DNA of 64,000 nt from the sequence record MN445185.1, one strand, 5' to 3'. This document shows, in pieces, positions 2,146-15,266 of the stretch. This DNA is from Escherichia phage vB_EcoM_EC001. The translations under genes and the position numbers were made by a program. The first letter of the stretch is position 1; each line of letters begins with the position of its first letter. The notes below the pieces were generated by a model. That model was not told the DNA's origin, did no database searches, and saw nothing but the letters and a program-made list of their open reading frames with translations.

Positions 2146-2727
2146 ATGCCACAACCAATTATTGAACAACATGAAATGAACTACGAAGAACTGACCCGCC
2201 GCTATCGCGTGAAAGCCCCACGGGTAGTAGAAGGTTGCGAGAAATACAAAGAAGCAGACTTCGTGGTATTCCAACGCGAAGGTGTTCCGATGATGGTGTT
2301 CGTAAAACACGTCAGCAGCGATAACGACGACCGCCTAGTGATGCTGTATAACTTGATGGCTACCGTACTAGATACCGATATTGGACTGTTACGTCGTTAT
2401 AAATCATCCTACGAACAGAAAGCGAAGGTGGTTGCTTTTGACTTACCACGCACGGTACTAGTAGATGGTTCCCGTCCGGCTATTCTTCGTTTTACGAAAA
2501 GCGAAAGCGACAGTAACCCAGCGCATATCGTTCAGCCACTAACGCTGTCGCAAGATACGTTACAGCAGAACGGCGGGATGGATTGGCTAAACGTCATGTT
2601 ACCGGGCCTAGCTGAAGGTCAGGAACTGCATCTGGTTTGCTACACCCCATCCGTTGAGCACACCTATGCGCGTTACCTTACCGAAGAACACGGTTTCCGT
2701 AACCACCGTGGTATTTACATTGCGTAA
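2146..2727 (+). CDS. hypothetical protein (193 aa)
   Basis: ORF starting 20 nt after a terminator; tightly packed with next gene. Confidence 0.65.
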   Translation: MPQPIIEQHEMNYEELTRRYRVKAPRVVEGCEKYKEADFVVFQREGVPMMVFVKHVSSDNDDRLVMLYNLMATVLDTDIGLLRRYKSSYEQKAKVVAFDLPRTVLVDGSRPAILRFTKSESDSNPAHIVQPLTLSQDTLQQNGGMDWLNVMLPGLAEGQELHLVCYTPSVEHTYARYLTEEHGFRNHRGIYIA

Positions 2728-2736
2728 GGTGAGTGT

Positions 2737-3300
2737 ATGTCCCGTTTACTAGAAATTCGAAACGATATCTGGCAAGAGCAGATCCACAACGATCCAGAGT
2801 GGGAAGGAGTTGAAAGTGATTTACCGGATAACCCCGACCAGCTGTTGGTGTTCCTTTATAGCGATAAAGCCAAACAGATCAAGGGGATATTTGAACGCAA
2901 AACGACAAGCTTGTCGACCTTACTGAGCTGCATTTGCTGTGGCATCAGTGAGCTTGATCCCAATCTATTCACCAACTATCTTGCGCGTAAAGTCCGTACA
3001 CCACTACTAGAAGTTACACTCCCGCCAGATATTCGTATCAGTAAAACTGTACCGACTGTTTTGCGTTTACAGGATGTGTCTGGTAGTAGCGACGATGGGG
3101 AAACAACGATTACTCTTTCCTCGTCAGAGAGTGAACTCGCAACCAAATCGTTTCTTAGCGAAGTCGAGGCCGGATTAAAGCAGGACGTAATCGTCTATAA
3201 TCTCGGCAGTGTGCCCATTGAGCCCATTTTACACTTCTTTGAAAGCCAAACCTGCCATCTTGTAGAAAGCTTAACATACCACTTTAAAGGAGCTTTATGA
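2737..3300 (+). CDS. hypothetical protein (187 aa)
   Basis: ORF with AAGGTGAG SD; 9-nt spacer from upstream gene. Confidence 0.65.
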   Translation: MSRLLEIRNDIWQEQIHNDPEWEGVESDLPDNPDQLLVFLYSDKAKQIKGIFERKTTSLSTLLSCICCGISELDPNLFTNYLARKVRTPLLEVTLPPDIRISKTVPTVLRLQDVSGSSDDGETTITLSSSESELATKSFLSEVEAGLKQDVIVYNLGSVPIEPILHFFESQTCHLVESLTYHFKGAL

Positions 3301-3584
3301 TGAAACTCGAAGGCTACGTTGTTACTGATAAACCTTTTGCTGAAGCCAACCTGTCGCGTTCACAGGTTGTTTATAAAGACATCGATGTGCCTGCCGAAAT
3401 CGTTAAAGCGAATCCCAGCTGGCTAATCAACCACGTTTCTTTGGAAATCACCAATCCGTTTATCAACGATCCAACCGACCCATTTGTCGACATGGGTAAT
3501 TTCCGCGATATTCTTTCCCCGCATCAATACCAGACAGTGGCACAGAAGAAAGGGAAGCTGCTCATCGAAACGTTGAGTGTGTAG
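3297..3584 (+). CDS. hypothetical protein (95 aa)
   Basis: ATGA start/stop overlap with upstream gene; AAAGGAG SD; followed by a strong terminator. Confidence 0.55.
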   Translation: MMKLEGYVVTDKPFAEANLSRSQVVYKDIDVPAEIVKANPSWLINHVSLEITNPFINDPTDPFVDMGNFRDILSPHQYQTVAQKKGKLLIETLSV

Positions 3585-6750: not shown

Positions 6751-7377
6751 ATGAACGAGATTACCCTGATTCGTTTCATCGACGATATGGTGACGTGTCA
6801 GAAAGCGAATCGTCAGGATACCAAACTGCGTATCAATCTGATGGAAGAAGAGGTAGAAGGGTTTCTGGAATACCCGCGATTGGTGAAGTGGTTTAAAGAA
6901 GCACTGCCGCGTAGCTGGGAACAGCTAGAAGCGTGGTTTGCTCTACCTATTGCAGAACGTAATCCCAATAATACGATCTTCACCGGAACTACTGCATTAG
7001 ATTTGGCTGGTTCGGTGGAGCAACCTAAACGTTTAGTTTTCTTCTACGTCAATGGCGATTCAATAATGGCTGATACAGTTAACTGGATTTCTGATGAGTT
7101 AACTGTAAACACCACATTGGTCGGTAGCGCTGCTGATGCCTGGGTTGTTGGTCAGCACCAATCGCAGCCGTACGAAGAAATCAAAACCGGTTATTTAATC
7201 CCGATATATCTCGACGGCGTGGCACCGGGTCGTAGTGCCGAACTGTTCAAATTCCTGCTTACTGAAACGTTAAAGGTTGTCGATTCTGATGCTGGTCGGG
7301 CGTGGTATGAATTAACCAAAGAGCGCACCGACAGTTTCTGGGAATCACTCGGCCACCGTAAGTTTACTCCGCAATAA
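6751..7377 (+). CDS. hypothetical protein (208 aa)
   Basis: ORF between two intrinsic terminators; GAAGGA SD. Confidence 0.65.
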   Translation: MNEITLIRFIDDMVTCQKANRQDTKLRINLMEEEVEGFLEYPRLVKWFKEALPRSWEQLEAWFALPIAERNPNNTIFTGTTALDLAGSVEQPKRLVFFYVNGDSIMADTVNWISDELTVNTTLVGSAADAWVVGQHQSQPYEEIKTGYLIPIYLDGVAPGRSAELFKFLLTETLKVVDSDAGRAWYELTKERTDSFWESLGHRKFTPQ

Positions 7378-7388
7378 CTCTCCTCTCT

Positions 7389-7420
7389 GGAACCCTTCGG
7401 GGTTCCATTTCTTCTTTTTT
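7389..7420 (+). terminator. intrinsic terminator
   Basis: GGAACCC-ttcg-GGGTTCC then ATTTCTTCTTTTTT. Confidence 0.75.
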
Positions 7421-7440
7421 ACGCATGACCTTTTGGATAT

Positions 7441-7454
7441 GAACGACTAATACT
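7441..7454 (+). promoter_or_regulatory. conserved 5'-leader motif (variant GAACGACTAATACT)
   Basis: Same spacing (~19 nt) to ATG 7474 as other copies. Confidence 0.3.
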
Positions 7455-7473
7455 TTCTCATTAGAAGGCAAAC

Positions 7474-9984
7474 ATGCTCAAGGTCGAACGTATCATTTTG
7501 AAAGGATTTACCGGCATGGGGTTACATGAAATCGAAACGTTTGATTTCACCCTCAAGTCCACCGTTACCATCATCCTCGGCGGTAACGGCTGCGGTAAAA
7601 CAAGCCTCCTATCTGTTTTTCTCCCCATAGCTCCAGCAAAATCTGAATTCCGTGAAGGTGGTTCTTACACTAACTACGCGTTAGTCGGGGACGACCGTCT
7701 TAAGTTTGAAGTCCTGCGTCGTGGGTCTTCTCTGTCTTGTAGTATCTTCAACATCACTAAAGGTGTTTCCGTCGTAGACTCGGTAAACGCCAAAGTTTAC
7801 AACTCCATGGTGGAGCAATTAACCGGAATCACCAAAGAAATCAAAGAGTTAATTAATGGTGAGACCTTATTAACTGACGCCACTACCGAAGTTCGTCGTA
7901 AATGGTTTACGTTAATGTCAGAATCTGATCTGACGTACGTTGTTGGTTGTTATCGTCGTCTGCGTAAACTCGCTTCCAGTTTAAGTGGGGCCATTGAGCA
8001 CACCGGCCGTAAAATCGGTGAGGCAAAAATGCGCGTGGTGGACGATGAAGAAGATCGTGCACGTTTGGAAGTTCGTTTGAAAGAACTGGACGTTGAGCTT
8101 CAGGAACTAAACCGCACCATTGAAGCGAGACCCGGTTTAGATAACGCCGTTTCGGTTGATAGTATCCGGAAACGCATTGCTTCGTTGCAACCGGCTGTAA
8201 AACTCATTATGGAGCGTTATGGTGTTCTGCCTTCTGACGAACTGATTAACGAGTTTCAAAGTCGTGTAGTTGCCTGGCGTGAGCAAGCTGCCTCTGCTGA
8301 AACTGAATGCAACATGTACAATAAAGAGTTGTCACAGCTACTGGATGAGGAGTCGCGTCAAGCGTATCTGATGCGCAACCATACCGGTCTAAAACAAACA
8401 ATCGACAGCTTAAAACAGGAACTGGCAACGTTCCAACAGAACTGGATGTTCCCGGCTCTGTTTGAAGGTACCCGCATCGATGTGGATAGCATTCAGAACG
8501 CGTTAAACGATGCCTGTAACTGGAATTTACCGTTGTCCATGCATCTGGACCAGTTAAAGACAACAGAGCGCCTGGGAGCGTTAGAGAAGCGTTTACAGGG
8601 TATGGATTTAACCTCTGCGGGTCTATCTGAAAAGCTGCAACGTTGTGAGAATGTGCTACACGGTTTATACCACGACCGTCAACACTTCTTAGAAACTGCA
8701 GAAGTTGATTGTCCACAGTGTAACCACCGTTTCCGTCCTGGGATTCGTAAGTCGTTACCTGAAATTGAAAAGGCCATCAACGATAATGAAGGTTGGAAGA
8801 AGCAGCTGAAAGACGAAATGGATAGTCTTTTGCGTGACCGCAAAGAGATTGAAGAGGACGTCCGTAGCTTACGTACGATTCGCGAAATCGTCATGTCGTA
8901 TTCCAATCATCCCGTTGTCGGTTTGTTTTTCCGTAAACTGCAGGAGCTGGATATCTTCACCACGGCGCGGGATCGTTACGGTGCCATTGCACGTGCCTTT
9001 ACTGAAGAGTTAGATTCGGCCATGATGTATCTGCGTCAATCGGCGAAGCTTGCAACAGCGGAACGGGAATGGCAAGAGGCTGTTGCCGCAGTAGGTAACG
9101 TTGATGGTGCGCTGAGCCAGAAAATTGAACATATCCGTTCACAACTGGATGGGGCTAACCGTCGACTGATAGAATACCGCAGACAAGCCAATGAGCTGGA
9201 ACGCGAAACCACCCAACTGCAACAAACCAAAGAAGCAATCGAACGTTTCCAAAAGGGCTACGAACATCTGGTATCGGAAATGAACATCTCCGTTAACAAC
9301 GTCGTGGTTCGCGAGTTGTTAAACCGACGCGAAGCGAAGCTCGATGCGTATACTTCCGCTCGTGAACGGTTTCGTCAAATGGAAGGGGCTATTGCACGTT
9401 TAGCGGAACTGGAAAAAGAGCAAGCTGAATTGCTTAAAGAGCATCACCATGCCAGATTGATTATCAATGCCGTCTCACCCGAAAAAGGATTATTGCGTCG
9501 TTACTTTTATGCTGCGATTACCCGCATCATGGATTTAATGAATCGGTATATCGAAATGGTGTGGGCATATCCGATGCAGGTTATTCCATGCGATCTAACC
9601 GACGGGGATTTGGATTATACTTTCCCGGTACGATTAAAAGACCATGAAGAACTGGTGCCGGATGTGAAGAAAGGTTCGAAGGCACAGCGTATTATCTTTA
9701 ACATGATGTTTCGTTTAACGGCGTATAAAGCGCTTGGTTTACAAAACTATCCTTTGTTATTGGATGAACCCTCTGAAGGCATGGATGAGGAACACAAAAA
9801 TCGACTGGTCAACTTCATTAAATCGTTGGCGTTGTCGGGAGAGTTTTCTCAATTGCTGGTCGTTTCGCATGAAGCGGAAGTTCATTCTAAACTTAACGAA
9901 GCCACCTACTGTGTCGTGGAGCCAGAAGGTGTAACGCTTCCACCGGTTTATAACGAAGGGGTAATAATCAAATATGCATCATAA
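7474..9984 (+). CDS. Rad50/SbcC-like SMC-family ATPase (836 aa)
   Basis: N-terminal Walker A GGNGCGKTS; long predicted coiled-coil; central CPQC (zinc-hook-like); C-terminal Walker B/D-loop LLLDEPSEGMD and VVSHE. Assigned by motif architecture only. Confidence 0.75.
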   Translation: MLKVERIILKGFTGMGLHEIETFDFTLKSTVTIILGGNGCGKTSLLSVFLPIAPAKSEFREGGSYTNYALVGDDRLKFEVLRRGSSLSCSIFNITKGVSVVDSVNAKVYNSMVEQLTGITKEIKELINGETLLTDATTEVRRKWFTLMSESDLTYVVGCYRRLRKLASSLSGAIEHTGRKIGEAKMRVVDDEEDRARLEVRLKELDVELQELNRTIEARPGLDNAVSVDSIRKRIASLQPAVKLIMERYGVLPSDELINEFQSRVVAWREQAASAETECNMYNKELSQLLDEESRQAYLMRNHTGLKQTIDSLKQELATFQQNWMFPALFEGTRIDVDSIQNALNDACNWNLPLSMHLDQLKTTERLGALEKRLQGMDLTSAGLSEKLQRCENVLHGLYHDRQHFLETAEVDCPQCNHRFRPGIRKSLPEIEKAINDNEGWKKQLKDEMDSLLRDRKEIEEDVRSLRTIREIVMSYSNHPVVGLFFRKLQELDIFTTARDRYGAIARAFTEELDSAMMYLRQSAKLATAEREWQEAVAAVGNVDGALSQKIEHIRSQLDGANRRLIEYRRQANELERETTQLQQTKEAIERFQKGYEHLVSEMNISVNNVVVRELLNRREAKLDAYTSARERFRQMEGAIARLAELEKEQAELLKEHHHARLIINAVSPEKGLLRRYFYAAITRIMDLMNRYIEMVWAYPMQVIPCDLTDGDLDYTFPVRLKDHEELVPDVKKGSKAQRIIFNMMFRLTAYKALGLQNYPLLLDEPSEGMDEEHKNRLVNFIKSLALSGEFSQLLVVSHEAEVHSKLNEATYCVVEPEGVTLPPVYNEGVIIKYAS

Positions 9985-10165
9985 AGGTTGGCGCTTATGG
10001 GCTTGGTGGGGTTTTCAGTTCCTTCAGTTTGTTGTGATGGTACTGTACCTCTCCTTTTGTGCAACCGTAGTGGTTATCGCTGCGGTCGTTTATTTAGCTG
10101 CTGCTCTTAAAGAACGTCTGTTCGACACGCGTTGTGAGTGGCGAGATATAGGAGAACGGACATGA
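9974..10165 (+). CDS. small membrane protein (63 aa)
   Basis: Overlaps end of upstream gene; strongly hydrophobic core with charged C-terminus; weak SD. Confidence 0.4.
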   Translation: MHHKGWRLWAWWGFQFLQFVVMVLYLSFCATVVVIAAVVYLAAALKERLFDTRCEWRDIGERT

Positions 10166-10266
10166 TTGAAGGTATCGTATTAACCGGTATTGCACTGTGG
10201 TTGATTCGTGGTGCCTGGGGTTGGATTATCCGCACGAAAGGATGGGCATTCCATGGCAAGACGTAA
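10162..10266 (+). CDS. small membrane peptide (34 aa)
   Basis: ATGA overlap with upstream ORF; AGGAG 7 nt upstream; hydrophobic MIEGIVLTGIALWLIRGAWGWII…; below ORF-track size cutoff. Confidence 0.4.
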   Translation: MIEGIVLTGIALWLIRGAWGWIIRTKGWAFHGKT

Positions 10267-10444
10267 ACCTGGTCGTTTAAAGTTTTGGGCAGTTGTGGTA
10301 ATGCACACTGTGGTGCTACTCGGTATTTTCATGTCTCGCGCTACGCCTGCCTTTTGGGGCTTAGTTGTTTTGGTGTTCTTAGAAGGGGTTTACTTCGGTA
10401 ATCTGTGGAGCAAGCCCCCCGCGTTTAAGGGACCCGGCTTATGA
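10253..10444 (+). CDS. small membrane protein (63 aa)
   Basis: ATG inside track ORF 10208..10444; basic N-terminus then two hydrophobic stretches; overlaps previous peptide by 14 nt. Confidence 0.4.
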   Translation: MARRKPGRLKFWAVVVMHTVVLLGIFMSRATPAFWGLVVLVFLEGVYFGNLWSKPPAFKGPGL

Positions 10445-10572
10445 CAGTCGTGAATAGTGTCAACGCAGCCATGATTGCAACAGGTGCGTATGATGGTGCC
10501 ACCTGGACAGACCTTGGCATTACGATTATCATCTGTGCAATCGGAGCATTTCTGGCATCATGGTTATTTTAG
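10441..10572 (+). CDS. small membrane peptide (43 aa)
   Basis: ATGA overlap with upstream ORF; hydrophobic C-terminal half. Confidence 0.4.
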   Translation: MTVVNSVNAAMIATGAYDGATWTDLGITIIICAIGAFLASWLF

Positions 10573-10667
10573 TGAAGTGGGTTGGGTGTATCATCTGTAG
10601 CCTGGTACTAGGAGCAGGCGCATACGCCCTAGGCGCAATCCTTGCATTGACGCAAGGTTGGTTTTAA
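10572..10667 (+). CDS. possible small membrane peptide (31 aa, GTG start)
   Basis: GTG overlapping upstream stop (TAGTG); hydrophobic throughout; no SD, so weak. Confidence 0.25.
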   Translation: MKWVGCIICSLVLGAGAYALGAILALTQGWF

Positions 10668-11004
10668 CAGGAGGGTAATTACGAAGTGGGAGAAGTATCA
10701 TGTAACAGTGAAACAGTCTCTGATCCCGTGGTCGTGGGTTCAGGGGCGGCCGTGCCAACCCGGCGTATCGTTCTTTCGAGCGCGGGGATGGCTATAGGGT
10801 CTTCAAAGAACCTTCTAGCAGACATCGCGGAAGTCTGCGGGCCGGATGATTTTGCAGTTTCACGTACAGTCGGGGAAGACTGGCGTGGTAATCAGAAGCG
10901 CCATGAGCGAATGTGGCGACGGAAGGTTACCTCAGCATCGCAGCGTTTTCAACGACGTTGTTGATCAAAGACACGGTTCCGATAGAGAACTGGTCTTTAC
11001 CTGC

Positions 11005-11042
11005 AGCGGTATACACCGCTTAAGTTTACCGGTAAACTTAAG
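11005..11042. repeat. 16-bp inverted repeat abutting a perfect 24-bp palindrome
   Basis: AGCGGT-atac-ACCGCT (11005-11020) overlapping by 2 nt CTTAAGTTTACC|GGTAAACTTAAG (11019-11042); no T/A-run on either side; ~70 nt upstream of ATG 11111. Confidence 0.6.
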
Positions 11043-11110
11043 AAAACACAAACGCAATTCTTCGTTACTCGCTTTCATCGCAGGTGAAAGCTCACTTAGG
11101 AATTCAGCTC

Positions 11111-11599
11111 ATGGCCGAAATTGTCATTCTTTCCTCATCCTCAGATTTAACGGAAGCACAAAATAAACAGCTGTTGGGGCTGCATTATAAATTTCTGAAC
11201 CACCAACGTACCATACTCCATATCGAAAAAGGTGAGATTCCGAACCTCACTCTGGAGAAACTGTTGGCGGGGAACCGTGCTTGTGTTGCTCTGGAAGGGG
11301 GTACCCCTGTTGGTTACTGTTTGTATCGCGTAATCGCTGGGGTTCTGAAGATTCGTACGATGTTCGTGTCTGAAATGGCACGCCGTCGTAAAACGATGAC
11401 GCAGATTTTTGATGCGCTTGATGTGAATGAACGGTTCACCAGTGCGCATGGGGGAATATACGCTTGCCAGGAAGCTGGTATTGCGTTCTTTACCGCTCGC
11501 GGTTTTGACAAGACCGTCTCTACAGACGGACAATGGCTTGAATTTAAGAAGCAGGTTCCTGCGGAAGCAGATGAACCTTTAAGGACTGCGGTAGCGTAG
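11111..11599 (+). CDS. hypothetical protein, possibly GNAT-like acetyltransferase (162 aa)
   Basis: Start moved from track ORF 11084 (GTG) to ATG 11111; C-terminal ...AGIAFFTARGFDK resembles GNAT motif B; assignment weak. Confidence 0.5.
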   Translation: MAEIVILSSSSDLTEAQNKQLLGLHYKFLNHQRTILHIEKGEIPNLTLEKLLAGNRACVALEGGTPVGYCLYRVIAGVLKIRTMFVSEMARRRKTMTQIFDALDVNERFTSAHGGIYACQEAGIAFFTARGFDKTVSTDGQWLEFKKQVPAEADEPLRTAVA

Positions 11600-11627
11600 T
11601 CCTGTTTTAGCACTCCTTACGATTATG

Positions 11628-11653
11628 CCTCACTATGAGTGGGGTATTTTTTA
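11628..11653 (+). terminator. probable intrinsic terminator
   Basis: CCTCACT-atg-AGTGGGG (one G-U) then TATTTTTTA; a second weaker hairpin spans the upstream stop codon. Confidence 0.45.
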
Positions 11654-11670
11654 CGCGAGGAGTGCTATTT

Positions 11671-11880
11671 ATGTTTCACCGTCCTGGGTTTTCAGCTTTA
11701 AACACCGATGTCTGTTGGGCTGAGTACGAACGGGCGAAGGAGTTCTTACCCGTAAATCCAAAACACATCAACGTGGGTACTATCGGGCGTGTTGCGTTTG
11801 ATGATACTCCGCTGAGTACGTGTATTAAAGCAGCGCTTGGTACGCTGCCGGCGTCTATAGTTATTGAGGAATTAAAATGA
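11671..11880 (+). CDS. hypothetical protein (69 aa)
   Basis: Start moved to ATG 11671 with GAGGAG SD 10 nt upstream. Confidence 0.5.
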   Translation: MFHRPGFSALNTDVCWAEYERAKEFLPVNPKHINVGTIGRVAFDDTPLSTCIKAALGTLPASIVIEELK

Positions 11881-13635: not shown

Positions 13636-14358
13636 ATGTTTCGCACCATTTTATTTCTTCTGGTAGCAGTGACCACATTCAACAGCAACGCTTCTTACCA
13701 GTCCACCAGTAACAAACATCAAAAAGAATTTGTCCTTATCCAGGACCAGTTCAATGAGATTAAACCTCTCATCGTCTCTGCATCTCGAAAACAAGGCGTA
13801 CATGCCGGGATGCTTGCGACCACCATTTACCGCGAATCCCGTTTTAATAAAAACGTGGGTAAGAATAAATCGAGCAGTGCTAGTAGTGTTGTCCAAATGA
13901 CGACAGGTACTAAACGCTCCATGATACGTCTGTATGGGAAACAACTTAACATCCCAAAGAACGCAGACCTTAATAAACCGAAATATGCTGTACAGCTTGC
14001 TGCTGTTTACATGAAACACATCGAGGATCATCTGACAAAACAACTCAAACGCAAGCCGAGCACAGCCGAAATTGCATTAGGCTACCGCTTCGGTGAGAGC
14101 GCTGCTGTTGCGATGATTAAAAAGAAATCATCGGTCGGGAAACGCTGGATGGACAGCTACCGAAAAGACGCAGCATTCTACGGTGCGAAAATGACGCCAC
14201 CGAAAGCTGAAACACGTCAGCTTGCTTTTGCGAAGGAAGACCGCGACCAACGCGTCGCTGAGCTTCAGAAAATCTGGGATACGCTGTACACCAAAATATC
14301 ACCTGCGGCCGGTACACTACTGGCAAATAACACTATCATGAAAGGAGCATTGCTTTGA
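13636..14358 (+). CDS. secreted protein, possible lysozyme-like/lytic transglycosylase (240 aa)
   Basis: Signal peptide; loose SLT-like segment YRESRFNKNVG…SVVQMTTGT; preceded by a 14-codon upstream ORF. Confidence 0.55.
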   Translation: MFRTILFLLVAVTTFNSNASYQSTSNKHQKEFVLIQDQFNEIKPLIVSASRKQGVHAGMLATTIYRESRFNKNVGKNKSSSASSVVQMTTGTKRSMIRLYGKQLNIPKNADLNKPKYAVQLAAVYMKHIEDHLTKQLKRKPSTAEIALGYRFGESAAVAMIKKKSSVGKRWMDSYRKDAAFYGAKMTPPKAETRQLAFAKEDRDQRVAELQKIWDTLYTKISPAAGTLLANNTIMKGALL

Positions 14359-14953: not shown

Positions 14954-14986
14954 GGTCAGACCTTCGGGTCTGACCACCTTTTATTT
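14954..14986 (+). terminator. intrinsic terminator
   Basis: GGTCAGACC-ttcg-GGTCTGACC then ACCTTTTATTT. Confidence 0.8.
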
Positions 14987-14999
14987 AATTCTTGGATGT

Positions 15000-15266
15000 G
15001 TGTTCGTGAAACGTTTAATAAATTTTCTCTACTGGATGGAGAAACGCTATAGCCACAACATTCCGATGATGTATAGTTTGTTATTCTCCACGGTAATGTT
15101 GGTAATCGGTGCGATAGTCGCGCATTTGATGGAACTCACCACTCCATGGGCGCAGCTTTTTCTCACCATCTGGATGTTGTTCTCAGGCTACCACATACGT
15201 GGTTTCATAACCCGATTCTTTCGCTGGCGTAGTACCTGGCATGTCTTTAATTCCGACCGTAACTAG
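15000..15266 (+). CDS. small membrane protein (88 aa; start uncertain)
   Basis: Hydrophobic ORF with two predicted TM segments; GTG 15000 or ATG 15036. Confidence 0.45.
   Translation: MFVKRLINFLYWMEKRYSHNIPMMYSLLFSTVMLVIGAIVAHLMELTTPWAQLFLTIWMLFSGYHIRGFITRFFRWRSTWHVFNSDRN

Follow-up and report, generated by a model that had tools for sequence, protein, structure and literature searches.

A conserved cassette of five small, probably co-translated membrane proteins downstream of the SbcC-like gene of SPN3US-like jumbo phages

Five small open reading frames (ORFs), here called ORF1 to ORF5, form a cassette on the + strand directly behind an SbcC/Rad50-like gene of Escherichia phage vB_EcoM_EC001. 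The cassette was analysed in a stretch of 64,000 nucleotides of this phage (the window), to which all positions refer unless stated otherwise, and occupies positions 9974..10667. Over this region the window is 95–98% identical in nucleotide sequence to SPN3US-like jumbo phages of the genus Seoulvirus. The cassette is real and conserved and probably co-translated, and it has no characterised relative. Judging from sequence, it is very probable that all five ORFs encode genuine, translated membrane peptides. The best reading overall, held tentatively, is that the cassette specifies a co-translated accessory complex that sits in the inner membrane and has the cell envelope as its target.

All five frames of the original prediction are present on the + strand at its coordinates. 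ORF1 (63 residues, 9974..10165) corresponds to SPN3US gp187 and phrog_16515. It starts inside the end of the SbcC-like gene (7474..9984, + strand, SPN3US gp186), which encodes an SMC ATPase of 836 residues, and the two genes share 11 nucleotides (9974–9984). ORF2 (34 residues, 10162..10266, phrog_13448) is joined to ORF1 by an ATGA at 10162–10165 and overlaps ORF3 (10253..10444, SPN3US gp188, phrog_18173), which has 63 residues in the window, by 14 nucleotides (10253–10266). ORF4 (43 residues, 10441..10572, SPN3US gp189, phrog_29196) is linked to ORF3 by a second ATGA at 10441–10444. The last junction is a TAGTG at 10570–10574, in which the GTG of ORF5 (10572..10667) overlaps the TAG of ORF4. 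ORF5 has 31 residues when read from this GTG, or 35 from an ATG at 10560. The junctions match the earlier description of frames linked by ATGA- and TAGTG-type overlaps.

Coding capacity was assessed in codon alignments with SPAsTU (69% nucleotide identity) and pEa_SNUABM_29. In all five ORFs the uncorrected ratio of nonsynonymous to synonymous differences (pN/pS) was 0.14–0.55 in the named frame, versus about 0.9–2.5 in the two shifted frames. The ratio of substitution rates (dN/dS) was 0.06–0.35 for the cassette ORFs where dS could be estimated, and the mismatches with both relatives were concentrated at third codon positions. The original prediction had asked whether the frames might be unconserved or free of coding constraint; purifying selection was instead found to be frame-specific for all five.

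Alternatively, the ORFs of the cassette might be open by chance, or shadow an antisense gene or a structured RNA, and not be translated. Three of the five ORFs are indeed absent from some genome annotations, and antisense open frames of 50–86 residues lie opposite ORF1 and ORF2 in the window (10107..10259, − strand) and in several relatives. However, the frame-specific selection holds for every ORF, and the antisense frame opposite ORF2 scores worse (pN/pS 0.28–0.47) than the sense frame (0.14–0.20) despite the third codon positions common to both; with shared third positions and weaker constraint, it was rejected as a shadow frame. No RNA family of Rfam matched positions 7300..11800, the start contexts are conserved, and protein motifs are kept through synonymous changes. 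Thus, the C-terminal ALTQGWF of ORF5 is written with varying synonymous codons in the relatives, whereas a hairpin at the same spot in the window is not conserved, and the constraint therefore bears on the protein. A terminator hairpin as the cause of this C-terminal conservation was ruled out on the same grounds. The explanation by untranslated frames is already contradicted, and its probability is close to nil.

The frames noted earlier as lying outside the ORF track are not new, as all five peptides are already public with their exact sequences as hypothetical proteins. The same genes are annotated as SEGD1_191-194, as MLDJOKPK_00249-00253 in SPAsTU, and as ACEC001_1880/1895 in vB_EcoM_EC001. 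The 35-residue form of ORF5 is ACEC001_1895, and it is annotated likewise in Lh1B. Compared with these homologues, the SPN3US record lacks ORF2 and ORF5, and ORF3 of the window differs by a frameshifted tail. ORF1, ORF2, ORF3 and ORF4 matched their PHROGs with E values of 2.6e-29, 5.8e-9, 1.2e-31 and 7.7e-33, respectively, all four PHROGs being of unknown function; ORF5 matched none (best E value 0.11). The five ORFs had no match in Pfam or NCBIfam, and no PADLOC family was matched, at E values up to 1, by any of six proteins. In the papers searched, no mention of SPN3US gp188 or gp189 was found.

The frameshifted tail of ORF3 affects its junction with ORF4. The ATGA described there in the original prediction exists in the window, but it is the product of one extra C peculiar to the window genome. 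A homopolymer of six C (10415..10420, + strand) shifts the frame of the ORF3 tail, while SPN3US, SEGD1 and SaP7 have five C at this place; six C were otherwise seen only in the low-quality record of Lh1B. The usual ORF3 has 67 residues, ends with ..PPRLRDPAYDSRE and overlaps ORF4 by 17 nucleotides, and its tail, KPPRLRDPAYDSRE, is conserved out to Erskinevirus. In the ancestral frame, the stop codon of the window ORF would fall at 10455..10457. One 67-residue sequence was present on 429 contigs and all other listed members of the cluster had 67 residues, versus a single contig with the 63-residue form. The exact 63-residue sequence occurs in one public record, ACEC001_1880 of vB_EcoM_EC001. 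The additional C may stem from a sequencing error or from a mutation specific to this strain; the tract may also be slippage-prone.

The start contexts were compared in SPAsTU, pEa_SNUABM_29, phiEaH2, Asesino, Huxley, Kwan and ChrisDB. In these relatives the preceding gene either runs over each start or stops within a few bases of it, and most starts are preceded, 6–12 nucleotides upstream, by a G-rich motif resembling a Shine-Dalgarno sequence. ORF2 has an AGGAG 7 nucleotides upstream of its ATG. The ORF5 start of Seoulvirus has no Shine-Dalgarno motif and overlaps the stop of ORF4 by one base (TAATG or TAGTG), which suggests termination-reinitiation. With overlaps or Shine-Dalgarno-like motifs conserved in the relatives, the translational coupling proposed from the window appears plausible.

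The SbcC-like gene, ORF1 to ORF5, a further small gene (ORF6) and a gene for a GNAT acetyltransferase form a co-directional run that is bounded in the window by strong terminator-like hairpins. At each junction of the run the genes overlap or are separated by a short gap with a Shine-Dalgarno motif ahead of the next start. The preceding unit ends at an intrinsic terminator on the + strand at 7388..7407, a hairpin (TGGAACCCTTCGGGGTTCCA) with a T-run behind it, which is likely the 5' boundary of the unit that extends from the SbcC-like gene to the acetyltransferase gene. The likely 3' boundary is a strong intrinsic terminator at 11625..11647 (+ strand), where the hairpin is followed by TTTTTTAC. 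Only weak terminator-like matches were found between the two, one of them being the unconserved hairpin in ORF5, and no internal terminator was found in the cassette of phiEaH2. From this layout the cassette would be co-transcribed with the SbcC-like gene. Terminator hairpins at window positions 2116, 3622, 7415, 11647, 16475 (− strand), 19591, 26331, 35446, 40480, 41853 (− strand) and 41891 precede a recurrent TTATTTTTT(A) or TTTTTTAC. This motif may be a mere terminator T-run or a combined terminator-promoter element.

Membrane character was measured as the summed Hessa insertion energy over windows of 19 residues, the background being the 439 ORFs of 30–70 residues in the 64,000-nucleotide window. 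Each of the five peptides holds a segment with an energy between −2.1 and +1.8 kcal/mol; values of +2 kcal/mol or less are reached by just 2.5% of the 439 ORFs, the five cassette ORFs included. The transmembrane stretch predicted earlier for each frame is thus matched by a segment of membrane-grade hydrophobicity in all five, that of ORF2 being marginal. ORF1 has a basic, Trp-rich N-terminus, one strong segment (residues 19–37) within a hydrophobic stretch of 38 residues, and a conserved, charged tail, RLFDxRCEWR. The hydrophobic segment of ORF2 (+1.5 kcal/mol) sits in the N-terminal half and contains Arg16; it is followed by a Trp-rich, basic tail, W.WII(R/K).KGWAF.GKT. ORF3, which carries the UniRef name '2TM domain-containing protein', has two hydrophobic segments between a basic N-terminus and a charged tail.

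The two last peptides have conserved C-termini. ORF4 is devoid of Lys and Arg, and its acidic N-terminal half precedes a C-terminal transmembrane segment and an invariant WLF-COOH end. ORF5 is a single-pass peptide with Lys and Arg confined to its N-terminus, for which the positive-inside rule predicts an N-in/C-out topology. Its ALTQGWF-COOH end is the same in all examined homologues but two (CLTQGWF in ChrisDB and SLCMGLF in Huxley). Residues of small-xxx-small helix-packing motifs are invariant in both peptides (Gly25 and Gly33 of ORF5, Gly35/Ala36 of ORF4). Paralogy within the cassette was considered and rejected, as profile-profile comparison gave probabilities of 2.5% for ORF4 against ORF5 and 1% for ORF1 against ORF3; the peptides are treated as five separate families.

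Homologues of the cassette were located in SPAsTU, pEa_SNUABM_29, phiEaH2 and Asesino (Erskinevirus), Huxley (Machinavirus), Kwan (Wellingtonvirus), ChrisDB and two metagenomic contigs, and among SPN3US-like phages at least four further named genera carry them in the corresponding place. Profiles of ORF1, ORF3 and ORF4 were searched against 5.8 billion protein clusters, and ORF5 was used in a full HMMER scan of 1.8 billion representatives. The matches were proteins of SPN3US-like jumbo phages and short contigs; two longer proteins in the ORF5 scan, of 163 and 543 residues, matched solely via short repeated stretches. The ORF1 to ORF4 peptides were also encountered on contigs of about 240 kb in many assemblies of Salmonella enterica isolates, under accessions named as Salmonella proteins. 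It seems that genomes of SPN3US-like phages are often assembled together with those of isolates from clinics or surveillance; a carrier state or contamination could be the cause.

Presence and absence were tabulated over 18 SPN3US-like loci, which constitute one of ten SbcC clades (60% identity) among 80 loci recovered via the C-terminal domain of SbcC. ORF2 was the most widespread (15 of the 18), followed by ORF1 (12), ORF6 (11) and ORF5 (10). ORF3 is present in Seoulvirus, Erskinevirus and Machinavirus and lost in pEa_SNUABM_29. ORF4 is clear in Seoulvirus only and absent in Erskinevirus; one metagenomic lineage gave weak matches to it (E about 1e-5). In Derbicusvirus-type loci all five families are absent and other hydrophobic proteins stand at the same position. 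The Kwan locus (L010) has a gene inserted at 3016..3402, between the ORF1-like and ORF2-like genes, for a soluble protein of 128 residues (gp209) with an HEAVH (HExxH) motif and no informative Pfam match. The Kwan cassette also holds two further transmembrane ORFs of 46 and 101 residues.

The tentatively favoured mechanism is as follows. Ribosomes would pass from the SbcC-like gene into ORF1 and on to ORF5 by coupling assisted by Shine-Dalgarno motifs, with termination-reinitiation at the TAGTG between ORF4 and ORF5. The peptides would therefore be made together, at the time when the recombination genes are expressed. Their predicted topologies in the host inner membrane would complement one another, ORF3 forming an N-in/C-in hairpin, ORF2 lying N-out/C-in and ORF5 N-in/C-out, and the inserted peptides could assemble via the conserved small-xxx-small motifs into a hetero-oligomeric complex of micro-proteins. 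ORF1, ORF2 and ORF5 would make up its core; ORF3, ORF4 and the lineage-specific extra transmembrane proteins would be exchangeable. The complex would act on the host envelope, for instance by superinfection exclusion or by blocking a membrane-based defence, a function as a lysis holin being less likely. That the five peptides act together as one complex could equally well prove right or wrong on present sequence evidence. The envelope-directed accessory role, which is drawn by analogy, is possible but doubtful.

An envelope complex is preferred because of the coupling, the co-occurrence of a core with exchangeable members, the helix-packing motifs and the specific conserved termini. Several points weigh against it. 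The cassette ORFs have no homology to any characterised protein in Pfam, PHROGs, NCBIfam or PADLOC, which leaves gene context and the analogy to other small membrane proteins of phages as the basis for assigning a function. Expression of the five ORFs is predicted here from their sequence, and complex formation is deduced solely from coupling and co-occurrence. Synteny within a largely collinear clade of phages is weak evidence of joint function. Purifying selection prevails throughout the cassette, without the signature of positive selection that is typical of an arms race. Lastly, the k-mers enriched in a promoter search, TTATTTTTT and TTTTTTAC, were T-runs after terminators, and no early-promoter motif tied to the cassette unit emerged.

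Host-takeover and anti-defence roles, which had also been suggested for the cassette, are possible. A comparison can be made with the Imm and Sp proteins of phage T4, which are likewise small inner-membrane proteins of a phage that act on the envelope, a mode similar to that proposed here. They differ in being single proteins of 83 and 97 residues and not a coupled set of five, and no homology links them to the cassette (no Pfam match). No Pfam or PHROG match to a superinfection-exclusion family of the Imm/Sp type was found for the cassette ORFs.

The position of the cassette brings forward a different possible function, that of membrane tethers or regulators of the SbcCD (Rad50/Mre11-like) nuclease; ORF1, possibly with partners, would hold SbcC at the inner membrane. 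The SbcC-like gp186 of SPN3US is essential, as shown with amber mutants (Thomas et al. 2016, PMC5105663). The same study noted that gp187 (ORF1), a protein of 63 residues with a predicted transmembrane domain encoded just downstream of SbcC, might be an anchor of SbcCD (PMC5105663). The start of ORF1 within the last 11 nucleotides of the SbcC-like gene fits this idea, and the two genes remain tightly linked across Seoulvirus, Erskinevirus, Machinavirus, Wellingtonvirus and ChrisDB. Moreover, the small transmembrane genes stay by SbcC even though the SbcD gene (gp27) is separated from it (PMC5105663).

A precedent of the anchor is gp47.1 of phage T4, a predicted transmembrane protein of 46 residues that was proposed to be the membrane anchor of gp46/gp47 (as cited in PMC5105663). 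In both cases the gene for a small transmembrane protein stands beside phage genes of the Rad50/Mre11 type, ORF1 even overlapping SbcC. However, no sequence relation is known, and the present case has five peptides and an SbcD gene that lies elsewhere in the genome; nor does the association hold for jumbo-phage SbcC genes in general. PhiPA3-like phages also have small transmembrane proteins right after SbcC. In PhiPA3 these are gp191 and gp192 (2372..2870 of its locus, L014), of 70 and 97 residues, each with an N-terminal transmembrane segment. The likeness lies in the place of the genes, immediately 3' of SbcC in a nucleus-forming jumbo phage; the sequences are unrelated, and the proteins are two instead of five, with longer soluble tails.

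A general link between SbcC and small transmembrane genes was tested over the 80 jumbo-phage loci and rejected, as a transmembrane ORF lies close downstream in only three of the ten SbcC clades, those of the phiKZ type and the Goslar type not among them. The Derbicusvirus-type loci, which have SbcC without any of the five families, also speak against an anchor, and five different peptides exceed the needs of one. It weighs in the same direction that SPN3US-like phages are of the nucleus-forming type, whose DNA metabolism is housed in a protein shell away from the membrane. Tethering or regulation of the nuclease is accordingly regarded as unlikely.

A holin/antiholin module was the first role put forward in the original prediction, and it does not stand as the leading idea. 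As holin, antiholin or pinholin, the peptides would control lysis by releasing or activating an SLT endolysin (13636..14358, + strand), which starts with a hydrophobic N-terminal signal/anchor, MFRTILFLLVAVTTF... In shape ORF3 resembles a class II holin, its two transmembrane segments lying between a basic N-terminus and a charged C-terminal tail, and the tail of ORF1 is charged as well. The signal/anchor of the endolysin would suit a pinholin as partner, and the order of cassette and SLT gene is the same in ChrisDB and in a metagenomic contig (L023). The arrangement thus recalls class II holins and pinholins, such as S21 of phage 21, that work with signal-anchor-release endolysins, in so far as ORF3 and a signal-anchored SLT endolysin occur in the same run of genes.

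ORF3 is, however, not beside the endolysin gene, as the cassette lies 3 kb upstream and is separated from it by seven ORFs and the strong terminator at 11625–11647. The cassette is also apparently co-transcribed with a recombination gene and not with late genes, ORF3 is dispensable in one relative (pEa_SNUABM_29), and no holin family of Pfam, PHROGs or NCBIfam was matched. In addition, a separate protein of 88 residues with two transmembrane segments, a basic tail and a weak DUF4231 match is encoded at 15000..15266 (+ strand), about 640 nucleotides downstream of the endolysin gene and past a terminator at 14954–14975. This protein is a candidate for the holin or pinholin of the phage. Nor do the peptides resemble spanins: the Cys of ORF5 (WVGC), which would have to serve as the lipobox Cys of an o-spanin, is not conserved in relatives, and no peptide has a periplasmic domain of more than about 20 residues, whereas an i-spanin has a long periplasmic coiled coil behind its N-terminal transmembrane segment. 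Control of lysis by the cassette is therefore improbable.

The small size and hydrophobicity of the peptides could also be those of membrane-active toxins or host shut-off peptides, which would depolarise or permeabilise the inner membrane in the manner of type I toxins and so bring host metabolism to a stop. Peptides of 31–43 residues with one transmembrane segment and a basic or aromatic end have the size and composition of small hydrophobic toxins, and ORF2 combines a hydrophobic N-terminal half with a basic tail. Against this, no toxin family was matched in Pfam or NCBIfam, and the cassette shares its run with an essential gene of the replication phase, when the phage still needs an energised host. 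The specific conserved termini (ALTQGWF, KGWAF.GKT and RCEWR) suggest specific partners over general membrane damage. Rfam gave no match to an antitoxin RNA in 7300..11800. A toxic function is accordingly quite improbable.

It can finally be imagined that the conserved C-termini face the periplasm as ligands and imitate the signal that outer-membrane proteins carry at their C-terminus. The ALTQGWF end of ORF5 would face the periplasm because the positive-inside rule places the N-terminus inside, and the WLF-COOH of ORF4 follows an aromatic-x-Phe-COOH pattern. Both C-termini would resemble the C-terminal signals of host outer-membrane proteins. If so, the targets could be a host PDZ protease (DegS, DegP or Prc) or the BAM machinery. 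In infection the phage would thereby reprogram outer-membrane biogenesis or the response to envelope stress, and the other peptides would hold the ligands in a membrane complex. This proposal is highly speculative.

Downstream of the cassette, ORF6 (92 residues, 10686..10964, + strand) is a conserved neighbour. It has a GTG start 10 nucleotides after an AGGAGG and encodes a hydrophilic protein with a conserved C-terminal half, EDWRGNQxRHER..RFQRRC. Its pN/pS was 0.40–0.65 in frame versus 1.2–1.5 out of frame, and no match was found in Pfam, NCBIfam or PADLOC. Annotations of ORF6 exist for SPFM13, Huxley (gp201) and Kwan (gp214) but not for SPN3US, which in its place carries gp190, a call of 41 residues in a different frame (window 10913..11023) that is probably spurious. 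The final gene of the transcription unit is that of the GNAT acetyltransferase (11111..11599, + strand).

The result confirms hypothetical genes that were already known and describes them more tidily; it does not reveal a new kind of system. It makes clear that reference annotations are incomplete, as that of SPN3US omits ORF2, ORF5 and a conserved gene of 92 residues. The cassette makes a clear experimental target, being a conserved, probably co-translated set of four or five micro-proteins, tied to an essential gene, in the phage SPN3US, which serves as a genetic model. To find its role would narrow the large share of jumbo-phage genomes that is still unannotated, and would tell whether these phages assemble membrane complexes of several subunits out of peptides of about 35 residues.

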